Assembly (NCBI GenBank): GCA_965235115.1
Contig: OZ249436.1
Location: 15,254,001-15,318,000 of the forward strand
DNA from: Laetmonice hystrix
Lineage: Eukaryota
Direction: 5' to 3'
DNA length: 64,000 nucleotides
This document shows positions 8,304-60,100 of this stretch, piece by piece. Every line of letters starts with the position of its first letter. Positions within the stretch are counted from its first letter, which is position 1. Under the pieces are notes generated by a model. The model made no database searches, was not told the DNA's origin, and saw only the letters and a program-made list of their open reading frames with translations. The position numbers and the translations under genes are program-made.

Positions 8304-11300
8304 ATGAATGACGCAGAAGGATCTCAGGTATGAAGTATAATGTTATCAACGATGTTTACATTTGGGATCCTTCCTCGCTCGTCGTAGCATCGGCCATCGC
8401 CATACGCCCATGCCATAGCATAGCCTCGCCTCCAGGGTGAGGTGAGGGTGCGAGGCAATAGATTGGGACAAGACTGCCACGGCAGACACTGACGTAGCCT
8501 TAGCCAGGATAAGTGAGATTACATTCGAGGTTCTGATGCGGCTGTCAGCCCATATTTACTGTCAGGGGGCCCAGTTATAAAAATGCCCTGTGACAATGTG
8601 TCATTGTGTGACTGTCAGTGTCAGTGTCACAGCACACAGGCTAGTGTGTGACACTGACACTACAGTGTGACTGACACTGACCCAGTCAGTCAGTGACTGT
8701 GTTAACTGTTGACCCTGTTTAATTTTGCTACTGAGACTGTCGGTTGTTGGAGTAACTGTTGACAGTGTTGTTCAGACAGACAGTACTATATAAGTTAGCA
8801 TCAGGGGTGCGTTAACCCAAAGATATCTTTGAAAACCTCGCTGGAGCCAGGGTGCAAGGTTTTTATTGAAACACTCGCTTTCTCCCCATCCGATGTTGCT
8901 GTCTGAAATGCCCACCAGTCCTTGTTCGCTTCCTATTGTTTAGATAATGCAGTGTTCTAGCTATAGCCTTTTGACATATCTGCCTGATACAGTGAGTTTT
9001 AGCTCCGATATACGACCAGAACGACTGATACGATGTTCTTTAGGGCTGATATGCAACGATATGTTCAAAGAGGGAAGCTGACCCAGTCAGTAACTAATGA
9101 TTTCCTATATAGATGTATGTCATTTCCAAGTTCATGCCCAATTTTTATTTTTCATGCCCCTACACTGGCTATATCTTATACTATTTTGATGTAATATTCT
9201 GTGACTTTGTCTTAATATTGTATAGATCTATGTGATTGACTATGTTTCAGCTTAATGTGTATTTGTATCTTACAGATTGTTAATGTGAAACTGGAGGAGG
9301 CTGAGTCATTGATGGATGTGACTCCAGCTGCCCTAGAACGACCTGCTTATAAACATGCTGGACATATGTCAAAAGCTTTTGAAGTTCTCAACATCCTACG
9401 CCGACAGAATCTATTGTGTGATATTCAGTTGGTTGCTGATGGACTGGAAATTCCTTCGCATAAAGCAGTGCTGGCAGCCTGCTCACCATACTTCTACGCC
9501 ATGTTTACATCAGATCTCACTGAGGCTCGAGCAGACCGTATTGTCCTCCAAGAGGTGGATGGAAAGGCATTGTCATTACTCATAGACTTTGTTTATACTG
9601 GAGAGGTTCATGTCACTGAGGAAAATGTTCAAGTAAGTCTTGATAGGAGATGCATATATGATGGATTGGTCTCTGCTATAGATCAACATGTGCTTTAAAC
9701 CCCGAAGAAAAAAGTGTCAATGATTGGAAATCTCTACTTCCAAACTTCAGTTGGATCAGCTGTAAAGGTTAGGTCTATGGACTTTCAGATGTTGCTGCCA
9801 GCTGCTAACCTTCTCCAGTTGGTTGAGGTGCGTGATGCCTGCTGTGACTTTCTCCAGTCTCAACTTCATCCGTCCAATTGTCTCGGCATCCGTGCATTTG
9901 CAGACTTGCATGCTTGTCAGGAGCTGCTTAACTACTCACAGACATACACAGAACAGCACTTCAGGTAATTTCAGTGGTCCAGACTGAAAAATCTTTTGAA
10001 AATAAAGGATGCCTCATAAATATTTTGGTTCAACTCTCAAGCCATGACTCAAACATCTGTAACCTTCTGTGAGAGCTCTATCATGCTTGTGTCATTTAAG
10101 TGACAACATTTGATTAGGATAAAATATAGTAATTGATTTTGTCTAATTAATGCAGTGATAACCTTTGTACTTACTGATTAAATGAAAGAGAATTTCTTAG
10201 CAGGTGAAAATTTATTGACATTAAAGATTTGTAGGCTTAATTTGAGGATCTCATGCCTGAACTTCATACTCTGGAGGAAATTTTGTTATAATGTGAGCTG
10301 TACAGAATGAGTAAATCAGAATAGACTAAAGAAATGTATCTGAAATGTGTTTGTGACTTGCTTGCAGTGAGGTCGTGCAGCACGACGAGTTTCTCAACAT
10401 GTCTCCTATGCAGGTGTGCAAACTGATCTCAAGTGACAGACTTACAGTGACGTCAGAAGAAACGGTATTTGAAAACACGTTCCTCATATTAAACCTGTGA
10501 AACATCCTTGAGTATCACTGAGTCATTTTTGTACCAGATGGAGAGGATGAATGTTACTGTATACATGTGTACATTTCTAGGTGTTTGAAGCAGTTTTGAC
10601 ATGGACCAATCATGACCTGCCTGCCCGTCAGGAGTATGTAGCTCAGCTGATGGAGCATGTGAGGCTGCCACTCCTCTCACAGGAGTTCCTGGTGCAGAGA
10701 GTGGAGGAAGAGACACTTGTAAAAAACAACAGTCAGTGCAAGGTACAGCCGAATTCAGAGATTCAAGTGTTATCTCAGATTAATGTCTAATTCCAGCAAG
10801 GACTGTGACTGAATGTTGTTTCATTTTTAGAAATACAGAGCATTTTAATTTCAGTAACACCAAAAATTATGAAATTTGTCAGCACAGACTAGTAAACTAT
10901 AACTTTGTAATTGTAAGTATAGTCCTGATTTTGCCAAATTAGTAATAACAAATGTTGGGCTATGTTTTGAGGCCAGAAATGTTATGATGTTCTTTCTTCC
11001 TGTCCAGGACTACCTTATTGAAGCTATGAAGTACCACCTTCTGAAAGGAGACCTCAAGGCATTGTACAAAACCCCTCGCACCCGCCTACGTACTCCAATA
11101 GGTCTCCCAAAAGTTTTACTAGTCATTGGAGGGCAGGCCCCCAAAGCAATTCGATCTGTAGAATGCTATGACTTCAAAGAAGAAAAATGGACACAGCTTG
11201 CAGATATGCCTTCCAGGAGATGTCGATGTGGTGAGTACATTAGGGGAGTATGGAAATGTGGACAAGGATTACATATTTTATTTATTGCATTGAAGTAGTG

Positions 11301-13067
11301 CAGATATTCCATCAGAATAAATTCATGACTTCTCTAATTTCAGGGTTTAACCATCTCGTTTCAGTATGCTTTAATTTTCCTGTTCTCTGTTGACCTGTAA
11401 AGCATGACTGCAGTGGTTTCACAATGCAATGTTATTGACCTGTCGTGAAAACCAGGTACCCAAAAAATTATTACCAAGGATATGACTTTTTAATAGGGAA
11501 TCATGCTAAATGAATCATTTGAATTGAACCTGTCGGCCATCATGATTTATTGATAGAACAGCCATTTATGAGATTTTGTCTTATAGGTGTTGCTGTGATG
11601 AGTGGACTTGTGTATGCAGTTGGTGGTTTTAATGGGTCACTCCGAGTTCGAACAGTGGATGTATATGACCCAGTCAAAGACATGTGGGCTGCTGTGGCCA
11701 GCATGGAGGCCCGCCGTAGCACCCTTGGGGCAGCAATACTCAATGGACTCATATATGCAGTTGGTGGCTTCGACGGATCCTCAGGTAACAGCTGGTTATG
11801 ACATCAAGGCATTTTAATAAACATCTGGAACCAGTACTTTTGGAGAAAAAATGTCATTGACATTGTAGAGTTTTGTCATTTCAGCAGGAACTTAACTGAT
11901 GATACATAATGATTTATTCGTAATTGTTTTAGACTAGAAGGCTTCATTACCCGTAATTGATCCTTCGCTAATAGCTTCAGCTTTTTGTGTATTATACATC
12001 TGTTATACTTTTTTCTTCTTAATACTTGTCTGTGGATTAAACTTTACCAAAGTGATCTGCTTGCAATATTATAAGGATGGAATGTATTACAGGTCTGAAT
12101 AGTGTTGAGTGTTATGATCCTCGTACAAACGAGTGGCAGTTGGTGTCCTGTATGAGTACTCGAAGGAGTAGTGTAGGAGTTGGAGTTGTTGGAGGTAAGG
12201 ACAACATTTGAAAGCCACAGCATTCTCTTGATTGACAAACCTAAGGTCCAGATCTTGTAAATGTCTTATTTTAATAGAATATGGATCGCTTTTAAACCAG
12301 AATGATGCAAATGGCTTTACTTAATTCAGTTGTATTTTGCTTGCCCTAAGGTTTACTATATGCAGTGGGTGGTTATGATGGGGCATCCCGGCATTGTCTC
12401 AGCTCGGTAGAGTGCTACAACCAGGAGAATGATTCATGGGGACCTGTGGCTGAGATGTCATGTCGGCGGAGTGGGGCAGGGGTCGGAGTCGTTGAAGGTC
12501 TTCTCTATGCTGTCGGAGGCCACGATGGACCCCTGGTGAGGAAGAGTGTTGAGATGTACAACCCAGATACCAATACCTGGTGTCAGGTTGCCGATATGCA
12601 TCTGTGTAGAAGAAATGCTGGTAAGTGTACATACCTAGTCCCTCAGATCAGCAGATGAATACATTGAAGATCTAATAGGTGTTACTCACCATATTGTTAT
12701 ACTGAGACCGTACGGTACATGTAAATGTTACAGCAGTATCCTGTGTTTTAACATATTGGTCCTATTTTTCATTATATTTGTTTCAAAGCAGTTCAGTGTC
12801 AATTCTGATGTACATGCATAGTTGTCGAATGACTGTAATGTCTTTTGTGAAAAAAGTCCCTCTTTGTAATAAATGTCCTCCTTTATTTTACCAGGTGTGG
12901 TCTCCAACAATGGAATACTATACGTTATAGGAGGGGATGATGGGTCCTCAAATCTTGGCTCAGTTGAATACTACAACCCCAAATTAGACACATGGACTTT
13001 ACTAACATCAAGTATGATGACTGGTCGAAGCTATGCTGGAGTTTGCGTTATAGATAAACCCATGTGA
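8304..13067 (+). CDS. KLHL2: Kelch-like protein 2/3 (ring canal kelch orthologue), BTB-BACK-6x Kelch, 593 aa
   Basis: Exons 8304-8327, 9276-9632, 9789-9964, 10368-10464, 10581-10742, 11008-11230, 11587-11784, 12093-12194, 12351-12620, 12895-13067 (1782 nt, all GT-AG, frame-consistent). [35 protein letters not shown] and [17 protein letters not shown] are typical of KLHL2/KLHL3/kelch. Likely co-orthologue of KLHL2 and KLHL3. Confidence 0.95.
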
Positions 13068-21464: not shown

Positions 21465-24400
21465 TTATTTGGTAGTCTTCTTGACAATAAGTGGTCCAAC
21501 ATTGTCCCCTGTGTCCTCATTGTGCTTGTTGTGTGATCCGTCACAGTATGGGAACTGAAAAATAATGTGCCACATAAAACTTAATTTATTTCACAAAACA
21601 GAGATCTATATAATGATGTCATATTTTTCATTGATTTCCTAATGATGAAAGGAGCATGCAGTAATTTTTAAAATTAATCATGCCGATCTTTAAAATTATG
21701 CAAATTTGCTAATTTGGCAATAAATCTTGTAACACCAGGGAGAAACCACGGGAGTGAAGGGGGGGAATACCAGTTAAAGGTAAACTCTATTGAATTCGGT
21801 TTTCGCGTCGGATGCAGCGATGGCCCAATCATCACGTACCCGTTCTAAAAATAGAACGCTCCATTCCCCAACCTGCCACAACCCTCGGTACAGCGGTGAG
21901 CCCCCCAGGCGCTCGCTGTGGTGTGGCCTGTGCTTGCATAGGCCAGCAACACCGACATGTTCGTCCGCCTTACAATAATATTGTATACGTCAGTGTTGCC
22001 GGCCTATGCAAGCACAGACCACACCAGAGCAAGTGACTGGGGGGCTCACCGCTGTACCGAGGGCTGCGACAGGTCAGGGAACGGAGCGTTCTATTTTTAG
22101 AACGGGTATGTGATGATTGGGCCATCGCTGCAGTCCGACGCGGAAACCGAATTCAATAGAGTTTACCTTTAAAGAAAGAAAAATATGAGTGTTGCATTTA
22201 AAAAGAGATATTTAAGCACCACATCCTGTGCGATGCCTAGGCGAGGGGCAGTCATACATGTCATTACTGAGTGCAATCGGTGCTTATATTATCTACCAAC
22301 ATGACTCCACAAACCTTCTTGGACTTCCAACAGCGACAGAAAACCTTCTTCTCCCCTATGTCCTCTATGTCCTCTGTGTTGACTACCTTTGACTCATGCA
22401 TGCTCTGAGACTTGTTCACCCTTGCAGGTTCATATGTTTTAGGCTGTTTGCGGTCTGGTAAGACCAGATGCAACACTGAGAACAGCACTACCAAAAACCC
22501 TGTGATTAAGGGTAAAAGTTGAATCCACTGATCGCCTGCAATAACAAGAAATGAAATATTGGTAATTATGATGGGTGTAACATACCAGCCTATAAACAGT
22601 AATGTTCAATCTGAAATGATTATCTTCAAGTTGCACTGTCTACTACTATATACCTTACAATCTTGATATAGCCTAGCAGTAAAGGTTTAACACAATGAAG
22701 AGTGTACATGTAATATCCACACACAAAAATCTCCTAGAAAGCAACAATCAGAAAAGGAGTGTGTATACCCCAGAAAAGCCTCTTAAAGACCCCACATTCC
22801 TTTTCTTTTTTTGGTTGTTAGTAAAGGCAAATAAAAATTTGACTGAAAGACTCACTTCTCAGTTATATTAGCAAGCCAGCCAACATTTCACTCATAGTGG
22901 GTAAATTAAAGCTATGTCGTTCATTTGATTATTCTTTTAAAAACCCAAGCCTGTGTAGAAGTCTGGTCAGATCCCCCAACATGATACTGATTAATGGTAG
23001 TTTTAATATTTGATCCCTTCGTCTCCATCACCTGACTTGATTTTTAAGGTCAAGGTCAACAGTAAAGTTCTGAATTAATTGTTTATTAGGGCCTAAGACT
23101 CCCTAGTTACACATTTCAAGTCTATAGGCATGCCTATCATGTGGGATTGCTGAGTTTCAGACCTTTTTAAAGAGGTAATCTAAAGACAGGCTGTGACCTG
23201 ATTTGACCTTTCAAGGTCACCTAAGGTCGAAACTTAAGAAGCCAAATGACATGTCTTATATAACTTTCTATTCGTGTATAATAGTAACCTTATGCCTAAA
23301 TATGCATGGTTTCTTGAGATACAGATCAGAATAGCTTTGCTTAACGGAACAAATATGGCTGTCATTGGGCCAAATTTGGTTCAAACTGAAAATAAACAGA
23401 ACCATGCATTGCCCTGCATGACTCCTTTCTGTGCGTCTAATTTGACAGAAAGGGGTAGAATAAGTACCGAGATATGCCCTGAAATGCGATTTTTCCAATA
23501 TGGCTGACCAGCGGCCATATTGGAAGATATAAAAAAAATCCTCCGTGACTCACTTAGCAGTCACTTTGGGAAGTCCAAAAATGGCAATGACAAACTTCTA
23601 GTGGCCAGATTCCTATATCAATTGAAACGAATATATGAAATGGCGTCCAATTACCAAATAATTTAATATTGGCAGTGTATATTTAGCCGCCATTTGGCAT
23701 GGTCATGTTACCATTAAGCTTCAATCCTATTGGATAATGTTCTAAGGCTACAGCTTTAAGGCTAAATAGCCAACTGGGCTACCACGTATCCAATTACCAA
23801 CTAATTGACACCCAATTTGAGACATTTGACTTACGTTACAAGTCAAGTGTCAGTGCTACAGGCAGTGACTCTGACAGTGACACCGCAACTGTCTGTGGCG
23901 GTTTCTTTGCGACAGTGTAAAGGTGCTTTCACATGCATGCCGTGTGCGGCGTGCGTTTTTGTTAATAATGTAACCAATGAAAATCGCCGTACGCCGCAAA
24001 CCGGAGGCATGTGAACGGTTATATCAATTTTTAATTATTTTACATTGTTCTATTTTTGCAAAAACGCACGCCGCTTCTTTACTTTACTCTTTAGTCATTC
24101 ACTCTCACTAGTCTCAGTGTCACTCTCAGAGACTCTGTCAAGACTTAGTTAGTGTCAGTGTGTCAGATATGAACGAACCCGTGTGGACGTGTACCGTAAC
24201 TGAGTAACGTATAGTATGTAAAGCGAGCCACCCAACCCAACGTCATATCATTCGTCATTCCGATTAGGGCCACCCCGTCCCAAGTGACCAAGCCAAGGCA
24301 AGGTGAAGGCCAAGGGCCCCGCCCATGCAAGCCAAGCCCAAGCAGGCCCAATTAAGCCAAGGCTGGGCAAGGCTGGCCCAGCCCACTGCACTGGGACTGT

Positions 24401-25043: not shown

Positions 25044-39515
<14,472 letters not shown>

Positions 39516-41675
39516 TGATGAATATGAAGCTAAAAAGACTGAGAATGAAGCCATCATCATGCACAGCCGGTCATGTGATTGACGGATTGGATATTGAATG
39601 CGCTATTACGAATGACCACTGCACTTTTTCACCTGGACTCCATTGAGCCGATTGATTCAGCATGACTTCTGTGGCTTTTTTTTTTTTTTCATTTTTTTCT
39701 TTTTTTAAACTAACCATATTAGTCTTGGCCAGTCCGTGCAAGGAAAGAGTTTACTGAGGCAGAGATGTACTTGGAAGGAAGCTGATCAGAGTCCAACATG
39801 TCTTGGATATTCGTAATGCGGTCATTCTGTCTAATGCCTGTGGTTTTTTTTGGGAGGGGGGAGAGAAGGGGATACTGGTTTTGCGCCCATGCTATCCAGA
39901 AGAAGGGAGTCGCAAATCGGAAAATGCAGCCTAGTACCTTGGTGCAAGTCCTTGAAACCCTTCAATGGGTACATCCATGCGTGCTGCAATGCACCAACAA
40001 CCTGTCAATAGTCTTGATGTGTCTGAAGGTTAGAAGTTTTGATATTGTCATCAGTCTTTTTGCTATGTATACTTGTTTTGGTTTGTTGCACACAATTTGG
40101 CACAATGGCTGCATTTTGAGGAGAGAGGAATGAAATATGGGGAATTAAGTCCATCAGTATGAGTATTGTCACCTTAAATTGTAGATGTTCCTTTGCATCA
40201 TGCAACATTCACATCATTTCTACTGTGGGTATAATTAATAATGTAAAAGTTGGCTCAACCTTCAGTGGATTATACTAAAAGGGTGACTGACAGTGAGAAC
40301 CAGAGAAGTACCTGAATTAAGTTATTTTGCAATTGGCGACTGTGTTTGCAGAGAGGATATGGACAACTGCACTCTATATTCAAGGTAGTACCCTCGCTCA
40401 TACCAGGTCACCTGACTCTTATTGTGCTGAGAGCTTCGCCATTGAGTGACTAAGACACCTGTTCTTGGAAGCCAGGAAGTGCAGTGCTAAAAAAAGAAGC
40501 TACACAGAATGGGCAGGGATTATTTCAATGAAAAGTGTGTTTAAAAAATGTCGACGCGTACCCTAGGTATCCAGATACACTTCCTTCTGTCTATATTTAG
40601 ATGTACATAAACTCTGTACATGTACTGACCAGTAACGTTTCATCCTGTCAGGCTACCAATACAATAGCTGTCTTCAGTTAATAGTTATTTTGATGAACAA
40701 TTTTTAAAATTTTCGCACCAGTAAATTCATTGGTCATTTGATAAGAATGCCAAGTGACCAGTTTGCTTGATCGACTTAGTTCAGAGTACTGTTCTTCACC
40801 AGGTAAATCGTAAGGCCTGCGTGGTGGTTGTACATTTATTCAAGTACATGACGAATTATGAATTACTGGTCGATATTTAAGCGTTTTGGCCACGTGCGGT
40901 CAGACAGAACAGTGCCCTTGGATCACAAACTGCTTGCTTGGCACATGGTGGTAGCAGTCCGACAGATTCTGACTTACGAAATAAAGCCAAGATACTATTA
41001 CTGAAAAGGAATTGGAATGATCTCTCAGTTCCCACATGCATTCATGAAAGTCGCCAGGCGCTTTAAATAGACTACTGTAGTTTGTCAAATCTATACGGTA
41101 TGCCAAAAATGACCTAGATAGGGTATCATTTCAATTTGCGTCCCTTCATTCCCCCTTCCCGATAAAGTGGCTGGCTGTACAGTGTTTTGAAGCAGTCCCT
41201 CCCCAGTATCTGCCTGGTTTTCCTTGCTGCATGTGGTGAACACAAACAAAAGCACTAACGGAGCGCGGCGCGGGGGAATGATTGTGCCACGAACAAGCAA
41301 AACATGAACCCCATACTTGTCATCTGCAACACTAGCTGCTCATCATTGTATGTTACCCTTTCCTACCATGAAATAGACATTTGTTATCATCAACTAAATG
41401 TTGTTATTGTTGTTTATTTTAAGCGGGAATTTATTCTGATAGAAACATTATTAAAGTGAGAGGGGATTTCTTTGCTATCATGCCATTATAGTTTGGTAGT
41501 TTCACCGTGTACGTATTAGCAACCCTTTCCATGTCAAACCTCAGCCGAGTCGGTCGCGAACGAGTAGTGAAAAGCCAGTCCCGTCCCATGTAGCCATAGG
41601 TGCGGTCTAAAGGGGTCTCGTGTTATCTGCCATAACTCCCAGCCGAGTGGCACTGCTACCGCCCCCTTAGTGTAA

Positions 41676-42687
41676 TGCCTAGTTCTCACTTTCACGGTTC
41701 GGTGTGCCGGAAGGCCACGGTTTATATCCGTGATTATCCGTGGGAAATCCGTTCTGCACCCGCAGACATGACCGTGGTTGGCCGGGATAAACCCTCGCGC
41801 TTCCGTAACGCCTTTTTTTCCGTGGCTCGATTTTCAACATGTTTGAAAATTTCAATTATTCCGTCACCATCCGTAAGTGACCGTAGCACAACCGTAGACA
41901 CCGGGACAAAACCGTAGCAGAACCCTGACCCATCCGGTGTCGCGGTCTGTTTTCTCCGCCGGTCTGTAATCTCCGGGTGCATGGTTTCCTATTGTTTAGA
42001 GGGCGAAACTGACTAAGTGAGCACGCGCGTGTCGCTGTTCAGGCTCACACCTCCGGTCGTCTGCTAGCTGATGGGCGGTGAAGTTTTCTTCCAAATAGTA
42101 ATCAACGACAGCCCGGATAGGCAAATTGCCGACCAATACTGACGGCGGAGTAAACAGTTATTACGTGAGACTCAATCTAGACCTGATATTTCGGATAGTT
42201 TACCGAGAACGATACAAATACACACGACTCTGCAGCCAACCTCCCGGAGATTTCAGACCGCGGAGAAAACAGACCGCGACACCGGCATTAACCGTGGTCC
42301 AAAATGGGGTCACGAAGACACCGGAGAGCCAACGGGTATGCTACGGGAGGGTTACGTATGTGCCACATAGAGACTGTTGCAGGACCGTAGCATGTCCGCA
42401 ACACTGTAGCATGTCCGTGTGTCAGCGTAGGACACCCGTTGCTTGTCCGTAGTGCTTCCGGTGGTGCCGTACCATGACCGTAGGAACTTCGTCACGTACC
42501 CGTACTAATCCTTGGCGACGCCTTGGTATTTCCTTAGCACACCCTTATCCCTTCCTGAGATCTTTCGTCAGCGCCGTAGCCATACCCTAGTACATTTTGT
42601 ACCGTGGCCAAATCATGCCGGTTTTATCACGGTTCGAGAGCGTAGCAATCCGGGGTCGGAACCGTGAAAGTGAGAACTATATAGGCA
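41676..42687. mobile_element. PIF/Harbinger-like non-autonomous element carrying a nested Ginger1-like MITE
   Basis: TIR TGCCTAGTTCTCACTTTCACGGTTC (right copy has a +4 TATA insertion), TAA TSD at 41673-75 and 42688-90; many CCGT motifs. Confidence 0.8.
41938..42281. mobile_element. Non-autonomous Ginger1-like DNA transposon (copy 2, inverted relative to copy 1)
   Basis: Near-identical reverse complement of 26001-26340; CCGG TSD at 41934-37 and 42282-85. Confidence 0.8.
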
Positions 42688-43612
42688 TAAGGTTCACACC
42701 TTTTCCCCATTTACATGTATTCTGCAGGAGTGTATAGTTGTTTCTTGGGCACCGAATACAGACTCGATCCATGCATCGTGTAACTGAGTGAGGAAAGTAT
42801 TGCCTTTCTGCACCATTGCGAGGCCAAAATGGAGGATTGCTCTGCTTGGCGGCCGTATGCGCTCTACTGAGCGCCCTCTAAACAGTTATATCCTGTGATG
42901 GTAACCCCTGCTCCTGTAGCAGGTAGGCCTACCTCCTCAACTTGGGAATATAGGACATCATAGTGTACGTGTATAAGGCCAGCTTTCCATGTACGTGTTG
43001 GACTCGCCCTGTATAGTTAGATGGCGACCCGCGCGGCGACCCGGGTAGGCCTAGGCCTACATGGAAAGGCACCCTAAAACTTGTTTCATTTTGGCTTCAT
43101 TGAAGCAATCAATCTGATGAGCAAGAAAGCTGTGGAATCGCTTCAGTGCCAACCACTGTAACTAAAGTCCGTTGTCAAGCACGGCGGCCATACTGGAAAA
43201 CGGTCGGTGACGTGTCGGGTTCCACTCTGGCACTTGACTCGTGGCCAGGAGGGCCGAATTTCTCCAGCCCTATCTTGGCCACGTGGCCTTAGGCTATAGT
43301 GCCTTACTTCACCTTCTACGCTGACAGAAAAGGAAAGAAGGTATATTCACTGACACGGAATACGTAGGCCTATATAGGCCTAAGCAAAACATGTACAAGT
43401 CATCACTCGTTTATGCATAGGCCTAGTCCTAATTATTAATAGGCTATATAGGCTACGCGGGAACCCTCCTGCAAGTATATAGGCCCAGGGTTACGTGGAC
43501 TACGCATCGATAGGCTTAACCCAGGCATAACAGGCAATTCACGCCAAATACACCAGATATAAGAGGCAGCGTATCAGATTCATAGCGGTGTAGATCTACA
43601 CTATCGTCCTAC

Positions 43613-46193
43613 ATGAATATGATCGGGTGGGACTGGTTCAAGGACATGTTGGGCTACCTTGGTAAGTTTTCTTTATATATCGTCAAGGAACCAGCACAGG
43701 AAGATTCCGACGAGTCTTGAGCAGTGTTGGTTTTCTGTTGACAGTGTTGTAAATTCGAAATATCTTCAGGCACAGATCTAGATCTATGATTTCTTGTATT
43801 AATGTAGGTCTAAGTAGGCTAAATGGTAGGCCTATAGTTTGCGTGCATGTGTTTTAATATCGCGATTTTCGCCCCCCTCCAAACAAACAAACAAACAAAC
43901 AAACAAACAAAACACAATACGTGAAATTAAGAAACGCCAAACTTAAAGTCGTGAAAATAAAGTCGCTTTGTCAGAGATGGAATGCATGCTGCCCTCTGGT
44001 GGAAGGATGAGTAGCTATACGGCAATGACTGGCATTTAGGCCTAATACATTTTTTTCACTTATTACCACCGGCGCCATTGTGAGTTTAAGAAAAGCGAAT
44101 TCAAACCAAAATGGGGGAAACCCACTGATTTTTGTAGGCCTATGCAGCCTAGGACCAAGTTAATAGGTAGGCCTACGAAAACCAGTGCATGAGATGCAAC
44201 TGGAACTGGATTTAGGAAATTGAGACACCAGTGGGAAGAGGTTTTGGCCTCTCAGATACACTTGACAACTTAGGCTATATCTATAGTATTTTCTCACAAA
44301 ATGATGATATGTTAGGATTTGTTTTTTTCTGAGATGCCATATAGGCCTACTTGTTGTTGCAAACAGTAGGCCTATTTCGTTGATGTGTTGCCTTTACTGA
44401 AGACACAAGAAGACCTGCATTTTCTTTTGCATTGGCGTGGATCATCTTTACTTCTTTCAGTTCCCTTCTTCAAAAAGAAAAAAGCCACACTTCTGTTGCT
44501 TGGCCTGGATCACGCCGGCAAAACTACTTTGTTAGGTCGACTAAAAAATGACCGACTTATTCAAGCAATGCCGACCTTGATGCCGTGTAAGTCGTTCTAC
44601 ATCAATGATAAATGTTGCTGATATACAGAAGGAAAAACACAACATATATTTTAATGCCATAGATAGTATTTCTACGAGGTTAGCCTGGTTTAGATCTATA
44701 GCTATTGGCCTTCTCTCCACAGCGTCGGAATCCCTGACGTGCGGCAATATATCTTTCACCACCTACGATCTTGGCGGACACAGACAAGGTAAGATGGCGC
44801 TATGGACCAAGGTGACTTCTGCTAGCATGGGCGGGTCCAAGATTTTTAAAAGGGCGCCGGGGTCCAAGAGGGAACGCTGAAAATAATACGGGGGCGGCAT
44901 TGGACCTCTTTATCACGAAGAAATCTGACCAGCTCCCCCCCCTTCTGATGGGAGGAAGTGTCATTCGCCAACAATTGCTTTATATAGGCTTATAGGTGTA
45001 AGGAAACTGACAGACTATTCACTGTTTAGTCCGGCGAGTTTGGAAGACATACCTCCCCGCTGCTGATGGAATTCTCTTCATACTAGATGGCGCTGATAGG
45101 GAACGCTTCGACGAGGCCAAAGCCGAACTTGACGTAAGTAGGCCAAGGCCTGCATACATGTAGGTCTACTGATTTGTAGGATCGAGTCTCTCGTATTGTA
45201 GACGTTTGAGATACGTAATATAAAATAGGGTACAACACAATACACGTACACATGTAGGTAATGATAATAATTAAGCCTATAAGTGGACCTGTTGAAGGAA
45301 ACAAGGTAGACCTCACATCATTTTGTGCATTCCGAATAGAAAGTAGGCCTAGACAAGAATATTACTATAAAACCTAATCATTTATCATTATTTACAGCAC
45401 CTGCTTTGTGACGATGAAATATCTCATATACCAGTCGCAGTCCTGGTGAATAAAATAGATATTTCTGGGGCCGCGAACGACAAGGAGATTTCCCAATATT
45501 TTGGGCTAGCTAGGTCCACCTGTGGCAAGGTAGGGAACATATGGCCGTAGAGGCCTGATTGATTGTTTTGGAGGACATTAGGTGGTGATACCTGGTTCAA
45601 GATTTGTTTATTTCTTTCCAACATACAAGTTACCAGTAAAAAATAGGGATGAAAAAGTTCATACATGCATGAGAACTTCATGTATCATTTAGTTACTGAC
45701 ATTTAATGATTATGTCTTCAAGCGACAGTCTCGTCCTTGTCTCGTCCAGTGCGATAGGCTGGCCATCCTAACTGTCGATGTGCTATTTATAGACGTCAGT
45801 TCCTATGCTACAGCATAGGATGGTCGTAGCTATCAAATAGGCCACTAGGTGGCTGCGAGCATGGTCTAACGGACGAGACTGTTGCTTTAATAATCTCTAG
45901 CAGTGACGGTCACAAAATTATAAGCTTAGGCTAATAAACCTAAATGATACAGGCCGTACATGGAGTCGTCGACATGAAATCTTTATAGGCTTAAATAACA
46001 AATAAGATCCCGGAAGTTCATTGCTTTTTCCGTTAGTTTTACTGTCTAAATTATTCATGAAGGTGTTCTTTTCATACAGGATGACTGCAGCACTCAAGAA
46101 GAGGGAAAGCGGGCACTAGAATTATTCAACTGCAGCCTCGTGATGCGCCAAGGATATGGAAGTGCCCTAAAGTGGCTGGCCCAACGTATATAG
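43613..46193 (+). CDS. Divergent Sar1-like small GTPase, 196 aa
   Basis: Exons 43613-43661 ([16 protein letters not shown]), 44461-44586 (GLDHAGKTT), 44723-44788 (DLGGHRQ), 45030-45133, 45398-45529 (NKID), 46080-46193 ([20 protein letters not shown]); 591 nt, intact frame, same intron positions as SAR1. Confidence 0.92.
45717..45890. mobile_element. Short MITE in the last intron of the Sar1-like gene
   Basis: Imperfect TIR AAGCGACAGTCTCGTCC / GGACGAGACTGTTGCTT, TTAA at the right end. Confidence 0.55.
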
Positions 46194-49100
46194 ACAAATC
46201 CAGACAAGCCAAGCACTATTTACGTACGTTAGCATATTACGAAGACAAACATTACTCTCGTCAAGGCAGGACATTCGGCGATCGCGTGTTTATATAGACT
46301 GTCTACATGTACTTGCAATAAACGTGTGGTAGTTTACTACAGGGCATTTACAAAAATGTATGTACATGCACATGATGTCGTTCACAAAAAACATTTTCTT
46401 GATAAATTACAGTCTGTATATAAATCAGTCAATACATTGAAAAGTCATAGCTAATTGTATGCAGCTGATGATCACAGGCCCTCTCTATGAGATAAACAGA
46501 ATATTCAGTTATCTACATGATATACGGTGCACAATTAGTCCATTCATTAAAATCATGTCATCACCTACCTATCAAAATAGACATTGGTAGAGAAATGTTG
46601 ATCAAACCCCCGACTGGCATCTATCGGAAATAAAATATTGATCGGCTCTCCTCCAGAGCCGCATATAGGCAGCGGTACATGCTAAAATACTGGTTCCCCC
46701 TCCTATCGCCAGCTATAGGAACTTTGCCATTCGGTCGATAGTATGCCCTCAAACTGCACCAGAGCCCCCTACTGGCATCTATCGGAATTATAACGACCTG
46801 CTCCAGAGTCACCTACTGCCACCTATTGGAACTATATCAATGTCGTGTTAAAAAAAATCTTTGATAATTATATTCTCCAAAGAGCCACCTACTGGCAAGA
46901 TGTGGATATAATAACAATAATAAGCTATAACCATTGATACAAAGTCTACCAAAGCTCCAAGTGATTTCCGACCGATTTTGATTAGCCTTAATGGCAGTTA
47001 TACATTCGATGGTTAGGGACATCCAACCTGGTCTCACTTTACCCTCTTAGTGTAACAGATGGAATAGCATTTGTAACTAACAAGCTGGAGAGGCAAGACT
47101 GTATGAGAGCGTACAAATTAGGTAATGACCACAGAAAACGACAAACAAAAATACATGCATTGAATAAGAATTTAATTCATACCCTCATTTCGGAAAAATT
47201 ACAATAAACTGGGAGAGTGAAGACATTCCCCGTTGAAATCGACATATGGTAATTATAATTTACAAGGTGAACATTTCCCTCCCTTCAAGTCGGTTACGCG
47301 CCCAAGTGGTGTTCAAGATACCGTTATACTGAGCAATTGACAGGAGAAGAAAAAAAACCCATGATTTCCTACGATTACTGGCATACAAACTTATTTTGCC
47401 TGCACAGAGATTGCACAAATGTTTATTTCCGGTTCCAGGTAGCGCCCGTACTAAAACAGCGTGAAACTGTTAACCTAAAAGTTCCTCACAAATTTTACTT
47501 TAAAAAGGAGGCAATGATCTACGAGAATTTACACTCTTTGAAAATAACACCGTGTGGGACTACCATTAGAGGAAACTGCACAACAAGCACTGAGAAAAGT
47601 TGTTGTTTCATAGCCGTTTCTGCTAGGCCTGATCAGATTCCCATATTGTATCTTCAGCAATGAAGTAGCATTTGAGATGTATGATGCTCACGCCAGATTA
47701 TATGGGTAAATTATAAGGCTAATTCAAAAACAAAGGGTTAGTATCCAAACACTGAACTTTCCAGAGAATCTTCTCCCACAAGCCACTAAAAGCGAGTCAC
47801 CTCATGACTGAATAGGTTCATAGCTTCAACAGGTGATACAAACTCTAATTTGGCAATACCAAAACCAATCTGGGACCACTGAAAGTGAACTTGAAGGTAC
47901 AAAAATTACATTAACACTTTTCCTATACTGAGAGTCAGAAATCTTTAAGATCATAGTAGATGTTGTCAAAGAACGTCAATACTCTTGATGTTGTATGGCA
48001 CTGGAACAACCCTTTCTTTCTGGATTACCTGTTCAAAAACAACCTGCAATGAGACCCACTGTCACCAACAAAACAAAAACACAAGGATTGATGGTGTTAA
48101 TTTACTTTTTCTTCGCTTACAAATTCCATATCATACATCAATTAATAATACATAATGTTGTTCATTCTTTAAAGCAGGACTAAAACAGAGTCGACGGGCA
48201 AAATCAGAAAATAACGTTTTATTGGGTTGGTCCTAGTTTCTGCTCATTTTATGTTGACATGACACATTTGTTTAGTGATAGCTATTTAAGAGGCTGGTGT
48301 ACAAAGCTGACCCAGACGTGATTGGTTTAAAATCACAGTTTGAAAAGGAAATGTAATAGTATAAAATGATGCAGAAACCCAGCACCTCGGTCGTCAGTGA
48401 AATACCTCTCACATCTGTAAAAGCTGGATAACTAAAAGTTCAGGTTAACTAAGTTTTCTATTGAAAAATGTTCACAACCATTTCTGGTAGTCCAAATACC
48501 CAGAAATCGTTTATTCTATCCATGTGGAACAAGACAAAATACTGACATACACAGACCACTACATGCATAAAGCTTGAATGGATTGGTGACTGCAATTTAC
48601 AAGTTCGATATGAAGAGACTGAGACTTTTCACTATATCGTACAAGATTCTAACCAAGATATCACTCTGTGGGAATCTCCGTGATGATTTTCTCTGGACTT
48701 GCTCCAGTTTTCTTGTAGTAGATCACATGTCCACTTACTGCCGCTATTTCAATCACATGTCACTGTGTGAATGTTGTATTCACTGCTGTGTTAATTCACG
48801 ATTGCCATTCCTGTTCACATCCAATTAATATCAAGTGTCAGTTTGGACAAAAATCATACTTTTGTTTTTTCCTACCTGTCCACGAGGGTGACCTATGTTT
48901 TCTAAGACTTTGTGTCAGGATCTGGGGTATCTCCTAACAGCAGTAATATAATGATAGGATTTACTGATGCTTCCCATGGGTCAGGTCTGTGTTGGTTGTA
49001 ACATTGGTTCATTGCGAGAATGTGCACCTGCTGCACAAAGGTTTTCCCTCCCCCTGGTCTTGACGAAGAGTGGCGAGAACATGGCGATGGTCAAAAAGGT

Positions 49101-49296: not shown

Positions 49297-52200
49297 TCAA
49301 TTAATGTACTGGGCTAGCCAGCGGAAGCCCTCACCATAGCCTTGCCTTTTGAGTACACTGCACATGAACAGTTCCATTGGACGACCATGCAATTCACTAC
49401 GTGGTACAACTCCCTGAAAACAAGCAAATTTCAAGTGTTAAAGAACTGCAAATGAATAGAGCTCAATGCAGCAAAAGGTTTTGGTTCAATCCCAGTAAAA
49501 CTTGGACTAGTGTACACCAATATAATTGCAACACTATAATTGTTCACATTACCGGGGTATGTATCATTATTCATGCAAGTCGGTGTCAGAAAGAGAACAG
49601 AAAATAAGTCCACAAAATGAAGGGGAAAAGTCATCCTGGAATATACTTTACAGATGAAAATAGACTGATATGATTGATAGAACTTGTGTTCAAAAAACAA
49701 CCAATGCATACCTTTCCTGTGGTTTGTCCATGGAGACCAAACATGTGTCTTAGTTCGTCTTCACTCGCTGCTCCTGCTGCATCAATCTTGTTACCAAGAA
49801 CAAGGACTGGTGCACTTGATATCTGCTCATCTGTCAGTAAACTCTGCAGATAGAAGAAAATAGCCATCCATATACTTGTTTATTTAAATTTCTATAATTA
49901 TGCTTGCATGGGAAAGACAAAGATCATGAGTGTCAATTTCTTTAATAGAAACCCTCATCCCTGAGTCACCAGAACTTGTCTATCACTATCAGAGTCAAAC
50001 ATGAGAATGAATGTGCTTCAAAAAGGCATCTCACCTGCCATTGATTGGTTTCAAGGTTAAAAAAAAGTGAAATTCCACCAGTCAGTGGAAAACTCTCAAG
50101 CCTGCAGAGTCCACTTATAACAGGACTGTTTTACATTACAGAGGCTTCTTTGATGTATGATAATTCTTAAAAATCTTAACTTACATCGAGCTCTGCCTTG
50201 GCTTCCACAAATCTTTCACGATCAAATGCATCAACAAGGAACACAATACCATCTACTGCTGGAAAATAGTCTTTCCATACTCTGCGAGCTGCAATTATAC
50301 GTGAAACAATATCAGCTTCTAATGAATCCATGAATAAACCTATTATACTGTGTATCCTACAAATTGTCAATTATCAAAAGGCTGCATCAAGACACAGACT
50401 GCCATAATGCATAGCAATACCATCATTATGGAACATTACCACTAGACTTGTCCGCATGGTGTTTTGGCAAAACCAAATGTTCTACACGTACTCTGGTTTG
50501 GGAATGGGTTTTATGAGGGATACATTATGGTCCTACAAAGACACCTCAAATCATGGCACTCTAGTCACACTCTATCTCATGTGATTATACTTATAGGTTA
50601 TTTTTTTTTAGCCTGGACTACCCCTTTTATAAACAAAAGTTAAAGGTTTTATCCGTCAAAAGTTTACTCATTTTTGAGAAATGATCTCTGAAACTAGGAG
50701 CTTCTAAGAAATCTGTCTAGTTGTTAACTTCGAAAAAAAACAACAACCTAAGTTGTGTTCATCTCTGGTTCCTATACTAAAGCAAAACTTCTACTCCTTC
50801 CTACCTTGCTGATGACCACCAAGATCAAATGTTGTGAATCGCATCCCTCCCATAGACAACTCCTCTGAGGCTGTAAGGGGAAACGCACTGCTACAGGTAT
50901 CAAGTACACAGTGAAAGGGCTTTTCTCTTAACATGAACTGTAAATAATACCGGTATTAGGCCATCCCAACGTTTCAGGTAGGGACATTTGAACAATTTGA
51001 GCATCTGTCATTTCACTAAAGTTACCACTGAGGTTCATGACAATATCTTGAAATATATCTATGGTGAACACCAATTTTCAGTTCACCTTACTACATGTGT
51101 ACAGTTGATATAGTTTGGCAAGTTTTTCCAGTATAAAGATAAACAAAATAATGTATAAAGTATACTGATCAGGACTAACAAATGTTAGCAACACAAAAGT
51201 ATTATAGGCTCCAAGATCATAGCAAATTTAATGGAAAGCATCTTGTTAACTTAGTACAAATACTACAGGGAGTAAGGCGTGCAGATTAATTGGCTAGTTT
51301 TTAACTATACAATGCTCATACATGTACAAATTCAAATCTGATCCAGGTTATGAAAATTATTAGAACTTCATGTTACTGATCCAGTTATAAATCTGCCAAT
51401 TGTTCTCGTTTTCTGCTCTAGCTAGTGGCATTTCTATAAATTTGAAAGTCTAATGAAAGAAATTTATTTTTACATTTGAAATAAAAATTTTAAAAATTGC
51501 CATTGGCCACAACATTAAATAAATATCTCTACAGTGCTATCTTCTAAAACACAGATTCCTGGTAGAGGTTGGCGTCAGCCCAAGCCTTACTTGGATGCAG
51601 TGTTGGGACATGTTGTGCCATTCGATCATCCTTTAACATGTGAAGGAGCGTTGTTTTGCCAGCATTGTCCAGGCCTAGGAAAACTAGCTTGCCAGATTTT
51701 TTGTAGAGGCCTGCAGCAACAAGCACATGCAAAACAACACACATCACAATAGGTACCATGCCATCAGAAGTCTGGCCATTCATAGCTCCAGCTATGTACA
51801 CTTGTCTTATTCTATTTTGATAAGATCTCTAACATGATTTTAACAAATCTCTAGCTAAATGGACTTGGCAGGATTCTCAGAGATTGTTCCAATTGATTGA
51901 TTTTCCATGCCACAATCCAGTTTCCCAGAACCTTTCAAGTTCACAACTTTTTCCTGGACATTGCCTCCAAGCGTCTATAGATCTAAAAAGGAGACTGCCA
52001 AAGGTTCTTTCCACTCTTCAAAATCTGGTAATCACTTGAGAGTATACTGCAGACAACCTGCCCCTTCTTTAACACTTTAACCCTTTCACTATTTGACAAC
52101 AATTTTATAACTTTAATGGGTGGGTCAAAGTACACAGGTGTGTACATGAATGGTAAATTTTCCCAGAGTATGACCATGAGACATCATGTATGCATTCTTT

Positions 52201-53798
52201 TGCATATAGACATGACAATGGTGATAGTATAAAATTTCCCACTTGTGGTTAAGGTAGAGGCTAGTGTTATAGTGGCAACCACATTTGAGTTTTGTTGAAA
52301 TATTTGAGAACAAAACTGAAAACTGATTGAGGACAATCACAAGACAAGGTTTAAATGCATTCCCCATTCAACCTCACACTTGGCAAGTGGGGAATCCACA
52401 ATAGAAAATGGTATACATGCCCCTGCTAGTCAGGTACAGTTGCATGGGGTGATGCATAAATTTCTTATCTGACTAGACTACCAAGTACCATAGTCCTTTC
52501 AATCAGGGTAAACAGAACTTTGCACATTTGAATGACTGATTCGGTATCTTGTCTGGTAAACAGGATTTGTATACTTTGGTAAACAAACGTCTACAATTTT
52601 TGAAAGCATCTGTAGTACTATCCAGTCCATCCATAAAAATGTTGACTGAGTTTTGGTCACTTCCTCATAGGTTTTGTCCCAGAGTCTTCATTCATCAGTA
52701 CATATTTCTAAACTTTCCAAAGCCTGTTGACAACGTGTAAACACGAACCCCTACAACAGAGATTAAATATTATGTCTGCCTCATTTGCAACTGTCACAGT
52801 AAATAAAATGATGATATAACCTGCCCAATGCTGAACCTTACGGGCTTTCTTTTTCTCACCTATCATTCTTCTCCTCCAGCTCTACTAAGATAGCAGGTTA
52901 TGAGATGACTAAAGTCAAAGGAAACAGTACGTATCATGTACACGTCCTCATTTCCCCCTCTCCCTCTGGATCATGCTGATCACCCAAACAAATATACTGT
53001 AACTGTACCTGCCAGAATGAATCCGCCAAGTCAGGCCCCTGTCATCTGAATTTTCGCTATTTTTTCGGGGGGGGGGGGGGGGGGTTAGACTGACAAAATG
53101 GCCTGAATTCCCAGCACTGTGCACTTCACTGAATTTAGGACTGGAAGTCATAAGACCTGATGATTTCCCCCTTCACTGTCAATCTTGCTTCTTCATTATG
53201 AGGGTTTAAACCAGAGGAGGTGACCACATCATGAGAACAAATAAAAGAAGATTGATGGACTTCTACTTCATGCTACAGCCTTGGCCTGGTCAATGTACAT
53301 GTATACCTCTTTCATTCATTCCATGGCACACATCTGGTAAGAACCAAAATCTAGATTTGTCCCTCATGCCACAAGCTTAGCCTCTGTACCGACTTACTGG
53401 GATGCAAAGTAGGCACAGGCTGGGTCATGTGACCAGCCTTTAGCACACTAAGTAGTGTTGTCTTTCCTGCATTATCCAGACCAAGGAAGATTATCTTTCC
53501 CTTTTTCCTGTATAGACCTGCCACAATTAAATACATTATCTTCTGATCATGTACATTCTTTAAGCACTCGTCTGGAAACAAGATAACATCTGATAAAAAA
53601 ATGGAAGAGATATAAATTTTTATAAAAAGTCTTTTTATCACATTATATGAATTCACAAACTTTTGATGGTAAATAGCAATGAACATAGATTTGCAAGATT
53701 TATAATGTAACCAGCACTTTTGCTATATTGTTATCTCCTTACAAAAGGGTCGTACCTAAGAAGTTCAAAACGCCAGCAAACCAATCCCAGAGGAACAT
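49297..53798 (-). CDS. SAR1: GTP-binding protein SAR1 (COPII small GTPase), 193 aa
   Basis: Exons 53798-53756 ([14 protein letters not shown]), 51710-51591 (or 53517-53398), 50870-50805, 50288-50185, 49843-49712, 49413-49297 (...[21 protein letters not shown]); 582 nt. Probable non-coding first exon with GTGAGT donor at 55663. Confidence 0.97.
51591..51710 (-). CDS. SAR1: SAR1 canonical exon 2B ([40 protein letters not shown])
   Basis: 120 nt, CAG acceptor, GTAAGG donor; canonical animal Sar1 sequence. Confidence 0.93.
53398..53517 (-). CDS. SAR1: SAR1 alternative exon 2A ([40 protein letters not shown])
   Basis: 120 nt, CAG acceptor, GTAAGT donor, phase 1-1; same size as exon 2B. Confidence 0.85.
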
Positions 53799-58860: not shown

Positions 58861-60100
58861 CTAAAGATTACCAAGCTCTGTCAACATTAGTCCTTTTGAA
58901 AATAGTTTAAATTCATCATATGTGGGAATATTTCTAGAGGCTAAGTCTAGCCTATTCCACTCAATAGATCCCCGATAACAGGTGCTGTTCATAAAGAATG
59001 AGATAATTGGTTGAGGAACCTTAAAGACCGGGCCATGATGCTGTCTGGTAGTGATTTGCCTATTATCTAAATAATGCGTCTTTGCCATAAAAATGGAGTA
59101 TTTGTGAATTTGTGCATTTCTAGTACACTCAGAGGTGAATCATTATTATAATTACATATTATACGTAAACATCTATTCTGTAATCTTTGCAGCATGGTGA
59201 GGTTATTTACTGAAGAAGCACCATAAATGGAGTCTCCATAATCAAAATACGGGAGAATCATTGATTTGAAAAGCGAAGAAGCAGCACCTGTGGTTAACAT
59301 GTAGTGAATCTTAGTAAGCATGTAAATTTTATGAGATATTGAAGATTTAATTCCTGAAATATGACGTGAGAAATTTAGGTTGGGATCGAGGGTGACACCA
59401 AGGTATTTATAGAATAGCACGTTGTTAATGGGAGAAAGATCAATGTTAAGATTCAATTTAGGACTTCTTTTGAGTTGTTGTTTCGTGCCAAAAGCCATCC
59501 CCTTCGTTTTTTTGATGTTTATAAATTGTTAATTTGTTACGTTTACACCATTGCACTAGGGCATTGAAATCAGTTTGAGCACAGTAAATAACAGTGTCAT
59601 CCGCATAGAGTAACACAATACAATGATTCACGACTGTGGGAAGATCATTGATAAAAATAAGAAATAATAGCGGACCAATGATGGAACCTTGGGGGACACC
59701 ACATGTGAGGGGTTTGGTATCAGAAAGGGAATTGTTAACTAAGGTTTTTTGAGCTCTGTTGGTAAGATAACTAATTAACCACTTGACCACACTATCATGC
59801 AAACCTATTCGAGAGAGCTTTTTAATTAAGATTTCATGGTTTATAGTATCGAAAGCCTTCTTGAAGTCAATGAAGAGAGCATATGTAACCTGTTTATTGT
59901 TCATGGCATGAAATATGTCATCAGTGCATTTCGAAGTACATGTAGTTTGAGCAGTGGAGTGTTTAGGACGAAAACCACCCTGGACACTAGTTAAAATATC
60001 TTTTTCCTGTAAGTGAATCATTAAGCGGTCATAAATTAATTTTTCACATCACATTTTTCACATCAGAGGATTCCCCTCCTTGGGGAGGGGGGTAACTATG
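58861..60100 (-). mobile_element. 5'-truncated, frameshifted non-LTR retrotransposon RT (CR1/L2-group LINE)
   Basis: QGGFRPKHST, FIDFKKAFDTINH, GVPQGSIIGPLLFLIFINDL, YADDT, KYLGVTLD, LQRLQNRCLRII across three overlapping frames. Confidence 0.92.

Follow-up and report, generated by a model that had tools for sequence, protein, structure and literature searches.

The window analysed here (64,000 nucleotides of Laetmonice hystrix DNA, contig OZ249436.1, positions 15,254,001 to 15,318,000) contains an intact but strongly diverged paralog of Sar1, the GTPase that initiates COPII secretion, beside a canonical SAR1 gene. The gene is whole, it descends from Sar1 and it carries the mark of purifying selection. 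Sequences of its probable orthologs have already been catalogued, and we regard the paralog as a real, old and uncharacterised gene that is probably functional.

Structure of the paralog gene

Three Sar1 P-loop exons, one in the paralog and two in SAR1, emerged from a six-frame motif scan of the window. The features of the two genes are as follows.

43613..43661, + strand: paralog exon 1; start codon, N-terminal amphipathic helix, WDW motif retained
44123-44187: high-copy hairpin repeat in paralog intron 1
44461..44586, + strand: paralog exon 2; PF and basic patch, P-loop GLDHAGKT (N35H), switch I (T56 retained, H58M); Pfam Arf, E 2.5e-10
44723..44788, + strand: paralog exon 3, 66 nt; T60S spanning the junction, interswitch, DLGGH with catalytic H79
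45030..45133, + strand: paralog exon 4, 104 nt; switch II helix, R84, K87 and Y89 retained; Pfam Arf, E 1.5e-8
45398..45529, + strand: paralog exon 5, 132 nt; NKID, start of the omega loop, QTTG replaced by STCG
45717..45890: MITE-like element within paralog intron 5, bounded by 20-nt terminal inverted repeats and present in high copy number; depth of about 44,000 in its bin
46080..46193, + strand: paralog exon 6; rest of the omega loop (remodelled), G5 NCSLV, C-terminal helix, stop
46317..46322, + strand: candidate poly(A) signal AATAAA, 124 nt past the paralog stop; a consensus match only
49297..53798, - strand: canonical SAR1, 193 aa, coding span
53798-53756, 51710-51591 (2b), 50870-50805, 50288-50185, 49843-49712 and 49413-49297, - strand: SAR1 exons
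53398..53517, - strand: SAR1 exon 2a, a second P-loop/switch I exon, 120 nt, phase 1-1, bounded by AG and GT

The preliminary description had claimed an intact Sar1 paralog tail-to-tail with SAR1, and this holds. When spliced by coordinates, the six exons on the + strand (43613-46193) give an open frame of 591 nt encoding 196 aa with GT-AG borders at all five introns, and the stops of the two genes lie 3.1 kb apart. The agreement in intron positions and in the lengths of exons 3-5 (66/104/132 nt) was likewise borne out and extends to the intron phases, which are 1,1,1,0,0 in both genes, with all five positions in common. The two proteins are identical at 108 of 192 positions (56%). Three length changes relative to SAR1 were found, all in frame (exon 1, +2 aa; exon 2, +2; exon 6, -1). 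The PFFKKKK motif, described earlier as an insertion, is present, but it takes the place of GLYKKS-type residues, so that exon 2 has 126 rather than 120 nt and the net gain is two residues. Exons 5 and 6, searched singly against the PDB sequences, both have Sar1 as their top match (E 2.8e-5 and 6.9e-6).

The coding exons of the paralog lie at flat single-copy depth in contigs from three runs, which come from one sample, perhaps the source of the window itself, rather than from independent animals and behave as DNA. No difference is listed in these exons across the same-sample contigs, and a single synonymous difference occurs in SAR1 exon 3. Because one contig from the same-sample runs spans paralog exon 6 to SAR1 exon 2b and the depth is single-copy, the arrangement is not an assembly artefact.

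Several other elements were observed around the two genes. A transposon-like element of 1 kb lies at 41680-42679, about 0.9 kb upstream of the paralog start; its 21-nt terminal inverted repeats are perfect, and further inverted repeats are nested inside it. The motif TATAAGAG was seen by eye at 43558-43565, about 50 nt upstream of the start codon, and has one mismatch to the TATA consensus. The 3' exons of a ubiquitin-conjugating enzyme gene (38232-39516, + strand; Pfam UQ_con), which we take to be UBE2D-like, end 4.1 kb upstream of the paralog. Exons of a BTB-Kelch gene (Pfam) occupy 9240-12658 on the + strand, and a reverse-transcriptase fragment in two frames (59067-60048, - strand; Pfam RVT_1) lies upstream of SAR1. 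An exon at 22264-22605 on the - strand, without a Pfam match, presumably resembles a CDGSH iron-sulfur protein.

Age of the duplication and selection

Silent sites between the paralog and SAR1 are saturated (pS 0.88; pN 0.325). The pN/pS ratio is 0.37 (bootstrap 0.30-0.45), a pairwise value that reflects past selection and not the present state. No similarity between the introns of the two genes was found by blastn, which speaks against a recent duplication and, together with the saturated silent sites, makes the duplication an old one. The local inverted duplication proposed earlier stands in part: duplication at the DNA level, supported by the shared introns and the adjacency of the genes, and retention under selection both hold, whereas a young and purely local event is unsupported since silent sites are saturated, intron sequences are dissimilar and look-alike copies occur in other genomes.

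In 29 ordinary Sar1 rows 77 sites are near-invariant; the paralog retains 59 of these, compared with 49 of the 115 variable sites (p 3e-6). The 18 near-invariant sites that are altered include core positions (L130A and G133V among them). A simulation of neutral decay by substitutions only left 70 of 5000 copies intact at a distance of 0.1, one of 5000 at 0.25 and none of 5000 at 0.5 or more. The data support the reading of the paralog as an old duplicate under long purifying selection and not as a decaying copy. Since SAR1 shares 93-95% of its residues with the closest stored Sar1 of lophotrochozoan type, nearly all of the replacement change would have fallen on the paralog branch.

These results also bear on whether the paralog is a recent pseudogene, a formerly functional copy that is now silent, which we consider very improbable. 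Its long branch, the two repeats within its introns and the several core substitutions would fit such a history, but the reading frame is free of stops and frameshifts, every splice site is intact, neutral decay would wreck the gene by a distance of about 0.1-0.25, and a candidate poly(A) signal is present.

Conserved and altered residues

Residues are numbered as in human Sar1 (window SAR1 plus 5). All five G motifs are present, namely G1 GxxxxGKT with His for the usual Asn, the G2 Thr, G3 DxGGH with the catalytic His, G4 NKxD and G5 CS, and the GLDHAGKT, switch I, DLGGH, NKID and NCSLV forms given in the preliminary description are each found as stated. The paralog is 56-57% identical to Sar1, compared with 28-37% to the stored Arf-like proteins. 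It keeps G32, D34, K38, T39, T56, L57, D75, H79, R84, K87, Y89, NKxD and C178-S179, and departs at N35H, M44R, H58M, T60S, T158C, M177N and most of the omega loop. The omega-loop insert (156-171) is present and one residue shorter, with QTTG reading STCG and G159-K160 retained. The N-terminus lacks Gly2, as in the non-myristoylated type, and retains the WDW motif; its helix is amphipathic (hydrophobic moment 0.48 vs 0.42 in SAR1), with a mean hydrophobicity of 0.27 vs 0.60. A non-myristoylated N-terminal hydrophobic motif and amphipathic helix are defined for Sar1 in the available text of PMC2150902.

These departures are concentrated in switch I, at the P-loop Asn and in the omega loop. Of the 211 full-length rows stored, 150 non-rotifer-type rows bearing H58 were taken as ordinary Sar1 by a rough pattern that mis-sorts a few; N35, T56, T60, H79 and NKxD are invariant in all 150, and T158 occurs in 142 of them with Cys in none. 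The departures thus hit constrained sites, N35 and T60 being invariant and T158 nearly so. In 432 segments, which are not independent and include about 50 rotifer relatives and a few Arf, N35 and H58 are both kept in 346 and both lost in 66, while H58 alone is lost in 20 and N35 alone in none. Loss of the Mg-binding switch I Thr was considered and ruled out, as T56 is retained and the altered residue is T60; Tyr before DLGG and Thr at 88 were also dropped as diagnostic marks because both occur in ordinary Sar1.

Different coupling to Sec12 is the weakest of the earlier claims. The available text of bioRxiv 2020.10.08.331793 places the Sec12 interface of yeast Sar1 mostly in switch II and names D32, F72, D73, R82, K85, D86 and Y87. 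The paralog is identical at five of these seven named residues, and the other two have become Tyr and Thr, both states that occur in ordinary Sar1 of other taxa. Altered coupling to Sec23/Sec31 or specialisation for cargo is possible.

Mutational data on Sar1 touch several of the sites concerned. T158A abolishes budding in vitro and mutation of L57 or K87 impairs it (PMC2150902, available text); in the paralog L57, K87 and the hydrophobic positions 15/16/18/19 of the helix are either unchanged or conservatively substituted. Sar1 with QTTG changed to alanine is still activated and recruits Sec23/24 and Sec13/31 but forms no scaffolds, constricts more strongly and blocks procollagen export, as described in the accessible part of PMC2911667. 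Residues of Sec31 inserted at the Sar1-Sec23 active site accelerate hydrolysis (PMC7594496 and PMC12265942, available text). No paper on the role of H56/H58 was found in the literature searches, nor do the available portions of PMC9974494 and PMC11919764 address it.

Proposed function of the paralog

We tentatively favour, at somewhat less than an even chance, a paralog that is loaded by Sec12 and initiates COPII assembly alongside SAR1 in some cells, but with a changed timing of the GTP cycle and a reduced capacity for self-scaffolding. We infer each of its biochemical steps from the protein sequence. Sec12 would load the paralog with GTP, the N-terminal helix would insert into the ER membrane, and switch II would recruit Sec23/24 as usual. 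With less assurance, the changes at N35, H58 and T60 in the P-loop and distal switch I may shift the rate of exchange or of GAP-stimulated hydrolysis, and the remodelled omega loop (STCG for QTTG, with new downstream sequence) may weaken self-scaffolding. By analogy with the omega-loop mutants, weaker scaffolding would favour constriction and small, fast-released carriers over tubes for large cargo. The omega-loop prediction may be wrong, because T158C is milder than T158A and G159-K160 is retained. The paralog would work beside canonical SAR1, probably in particular cell types.

The same residues could belong to a biochemically ordinary spare Sar1 that serves one tissue or stage (e.g. gonad or gland) and whose drift reflects relaxed constraint, a reading we find credible though rather unlikely. 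All core motifs and most of the Sec12 contacts are retained, similar changes in switch I of the Aphidius SAR2-like and Babylonia duplicates suggest drift in released Sar1 copies, and the functions of mouse Sar1a and Sar1b overlap (PMC11087783, available text); against this, the altered sites are invariant or nearly so in the 150 ordinary rows, and N35 was never lost without H58 (0 of the 432 non-independent segments). A further possibility, which we judge improbable, is a modulator that binds Sec12 or Sec23 through switch II, cycles poorly and damps or biases SAR1-driven export. The retention of switch II while switch I and the omega loop diverge would suit it, as would the dominant effect of omega-loop mutants on procollagen export in cells (PMC2911667, available text), but H79, T39, T56 and NKxD are all retained and a pure decoy would need none of them.

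Related copies in other animals

A HMMER search with paralog exon 2 matched 289 proteins at E <=0.001, of which 150 are listed. A word-index homolog search with the same exon returned 20 candidates and none significant, which is weak evidence since HMMER found relatives. Among the 150 listed matches, at least six records (five distinct over the core) carry the exon-2 signature. These PF-type exon fragments (ENA records P0121, P0122/P0123, P0130, P0137 and P0143) share with the paralog the PF start, a longer basic patch, R44 and the loss of H58, and run into intron-like sequence at the same two boundaries as paralog exon 2. Counted over a core of 35 residues, their identities with the paralog number 25, 26, 24, 22 and 19, and those with canonical exon 2b number 24, 22, 21, 22 and 22 respectively; two of the five are no closer to the paralog than to exon 2b by raw identity. 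L57 is absent from most diverged fragments and retained in the paralog. The wide spread among the diverged copies fits relaxed constraint as well as a common new function.

Diverged second Sar1 genes were found in Dimorphilus, Capitella, bdelloid rotifers and amphioxus, and with five fragments sharing the exon-2 signature these indicate that the paralog is probably not species-specific. The Dimorphilus gyrociliatus protein DgyrCDS4272 (CAD5115279.1) is a diverged full-length Sar1 that is 47% identical to the paralog and has Ser for T56. Its gene and that of the canonical copy lie on different contigs, and no conserved linkage of a paralog with SAR1 was found in Dimorphilus; the accession numbers of Capitella Sar1a and Sar1b are 61 apart, which is a hint of linkage only. 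A search of the ESM Atlas with the Dimorphilus copy returned only generic Sar1/Arf clusters.

Like the paralog, Capitella CteSar1b (ELU10821.1) and DgyrCDS4272 are strongly diverged annelid second copies alongside a canonical one, but both are more diverged than the paralog and both have Ser for T56. CteSar1b, compared by eye, resembles the paralog in a basic run followed by Thr before beta1, R44, the loss of H58, Tyr before DxGGH, DG after beta4 and PVAVL before NKxD. R44 and the loss of H58 are also common to amphioxus BflSar1b and the bdelloid Sar1b proteins (Adineta vaga AdaSar1b1/b2, Rotaria, Didymodactylos). Rotifer Sar1b further shares with the paralog G43, I51, A53, mostly S60 and the loss of N35 (His in Didymodactylos); it is 34-45% identical to the paralog and, as long branches meet in the trees, a candidate for orthology at most. 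About 50 bdelloid-type copies occur among the best 120 of 3612 matches listed from a profile search that scored 8000 candidates and is partly circular, one bdelloid-type copy being in the query. These copies (P0225, P0285-P0333) make up a group that is conserved within itself but far removed from canonical Sar1 (about 40% identity); most have Asp for N35, and they lack H58 and QTTG.

The copies CteSar1b, AdaSar1b1/b2 and BflSar1b are already catalogued in the available part of the supplement of Vargova et al. 2021 (PMC8358228). The Capitella and amphioxus copies are annotated there simply as Sar1, CteSar1b being filed by similarity and without comment, and that part of the supplement gives no such copy for Lottia, Schmidtea, Strongylocentrotus, Saccoglossus, Nematostella, Drosophila or C. 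elegans. The available Sar1/Holozoa text of this ARF-family survey (PMC8358228 preprint) names no Sar1-derived animal paralog.

Less diverged duplicates that lack H58 were observed in Babylonia (a snail; P0340) and Aphidius (a wasp; P0343). Their loss of H58 as well suggests that this residue is released early after Sar1 duplication. R44 occurs in canonical Sar1 of heterobranch snails and the insect duplicate has a similar switch I, so convergence is real.

A Sar1-derived GTPase that has left COPII for other effectors on ER-related membranes would also account for part of this pattern: the effector-side half of switch I is rewritten, the PF and basic patch after the helix are common to five other fragments, and the Capitella and rotifer copies are still further from Sar1. 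We hold this to be quite unlikely, as switch II, which serves both Sec12 and Sec23, is nearly canonical in the paralog.

Phylogenetic position

SAR1 groups with annelid sequences in a tree of 26 proteins (88/88) and with rotifers left out (87/83), a grouping not resolved with the paralog as the only long branch; over the first 110 residues it matches Capitella Sar1a, compared by eye. Both SAR1 and its exon 2a are of lophotrochozoan type, and the sequence evidence makes an annelid host probable. The paralog joins the Dimorphilus and rotifer copies in the 26-protein tree (90/95, unstarred and with a long-branch warning), pairs with the Dimorphilus copy (98/97) when the rotifers, two diverged rows and the Aphidius copy are left out, and as the only long branch pairs with the Babylonia duplicate (96/89). 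Nine named diverged rows form one weak group in a quick tree of 48 rows (support 77), and six diverged rows need three changes in the careful 26-protein tree. Neither a position of the paralog as sister to the window SAR1 (AU p 0.057) nor one within the annelid canonical copies (p 0.073) is rejected. CteSar1b lies outside all of the trees, and both it and BflSar1b were compared by eye only.

The 35-column exon-2 tree places the paralog with Dimorphilus and the rotifers (95/90), within a wider group that holds four of the five PF-type fragments (86/88). A single clade of the six PF-type exons was not recovered in it, P0143 standing apart, and was not rejected (p 0.118). An annelid-wide origin of the paralog is likely and an origin deeper than annelids is possible. 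The Dimorphilus grouping could also be long-branch attraction, with a younger origin of the paralog (AU p 0.057) possible.

An alternative second exon in SAR1

SAR1 exon 2a, which the preliminary description had overlooked, is 72.5% identical to exon 2b, and both have 120 nt and phase 1-1. Among the best 120 of 2423 matches listed, exon 2a has counterparts of 80-90% identity in isoforms of the molluscs Liolophura, Patella, Sinanodonta and Pomacea. The Haliotis isoforms X1 and X2 differ in exon 2 alone, and Liolophura X1 and X2 carry one form each. Tandem second exons 2 also occur in spiders, a pseudoscorpion and a shrimp; isoforms with both exons are annotated in spiders, in frame, and inclusion of both 2a and 2b in SAR1 would keep the frame. 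We consider 2a/2b a candidate ancient pair of mutually exclusive exons. A far more diverged second exon 2, with Lys for N35 and T56 replaced, was noted in cockroach and shrimp records (P0003, P0027).

Paralog exon 2 is identical to 2b at 21 of 35 positions and to 2a at 19 of 35, and shares G43 and a bulky residue 51 with the 2a forms. Descent from 2a and from 2b gave AU p values of 0.30 and 0.25, and no relic second exon 2 was found in the paralog. The locus can, as far as its exons indicate, make three versions of the P-loop/switch I cassette (paralog, 2a and 2b).

Comparison with known Sar1 proteins and significance

Canonical animal Sar1 (human SAR1A/SAR1B, with yeast Sar1; PDB 1F6B, 1M2O, 2QTV, 6X90) shares with the paralog the G motifs, H79, the omega-loop insert and an amphipathic N-terminus without the myristoylation glycine, and the introns of the paralog are those of the neighbouring SAR1. 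Unlike the paralog, canonical Sar1 lacks the PF and basic patch after the helix, and the paralog evolves far faster. Vertebrate SAR1A and SAR1B differ at 20 of 198 residues, whereas the paralog and SAR1 differ at 84 of 192; even such small differences change exchange rate and Sec23/Sec31 binding in mammals, and SAR1A and SAR1B also differ in cargo (PMC7307210, available text). SarB, an ancient protist paralog found alongside true Sar1, has intron positions of its own and usually carries Trp before DxxG, according to the available text of PMC8358228. The paralog is not SarB, having Tyr before DxxG and five introns that are those of SAR1.

The scattered copies might represent a second Sar1 subfamily, hitherto unrecognised and of ancient origin in spiralians or perhaps in bilaterians as a whole, that builds distinct ER carriers, with the SAR1 cassette independently diversified by exon 2a; we regard this as doubtful. 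It would span annelids, bdelloid rotifers and amphioxus with repeated loss elsewhere, marked by an altered distal part of switch I (R44, with H58 and often also N35 lost) and by a remodelled omega loop. Were it true, many invertebrates would possess two or three variants of the Sar1 switch instead of the single one given in textbooks. Many invertebrates are said in the available text of PMC7307210 to have a single Sar1, and in searches of the open-access literature, as far as the texts were available (PMC4419792 and PMC7835409 among them), neither a diverged Sar1 paralog of an invertebrate nor the pair of SAR1 exons 2 turned up as a subject of study.

The paralog would have been retained by selection in annelids and perhaps more widely, and offers a natural variant for testing how the size of carriers and the range of cargo depend on Sar1. 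Should the scattered Sar1b genes prove to be a single lineage, an animal paralog has escaped the ARF-family catalogue; should they have arisen independently, they reveal the Sar1 positions that are released first after duplication. Either way the finding is a refinement of a known pathway and not a new system, and these animals may possess a second form of the initial step in protein secretion.
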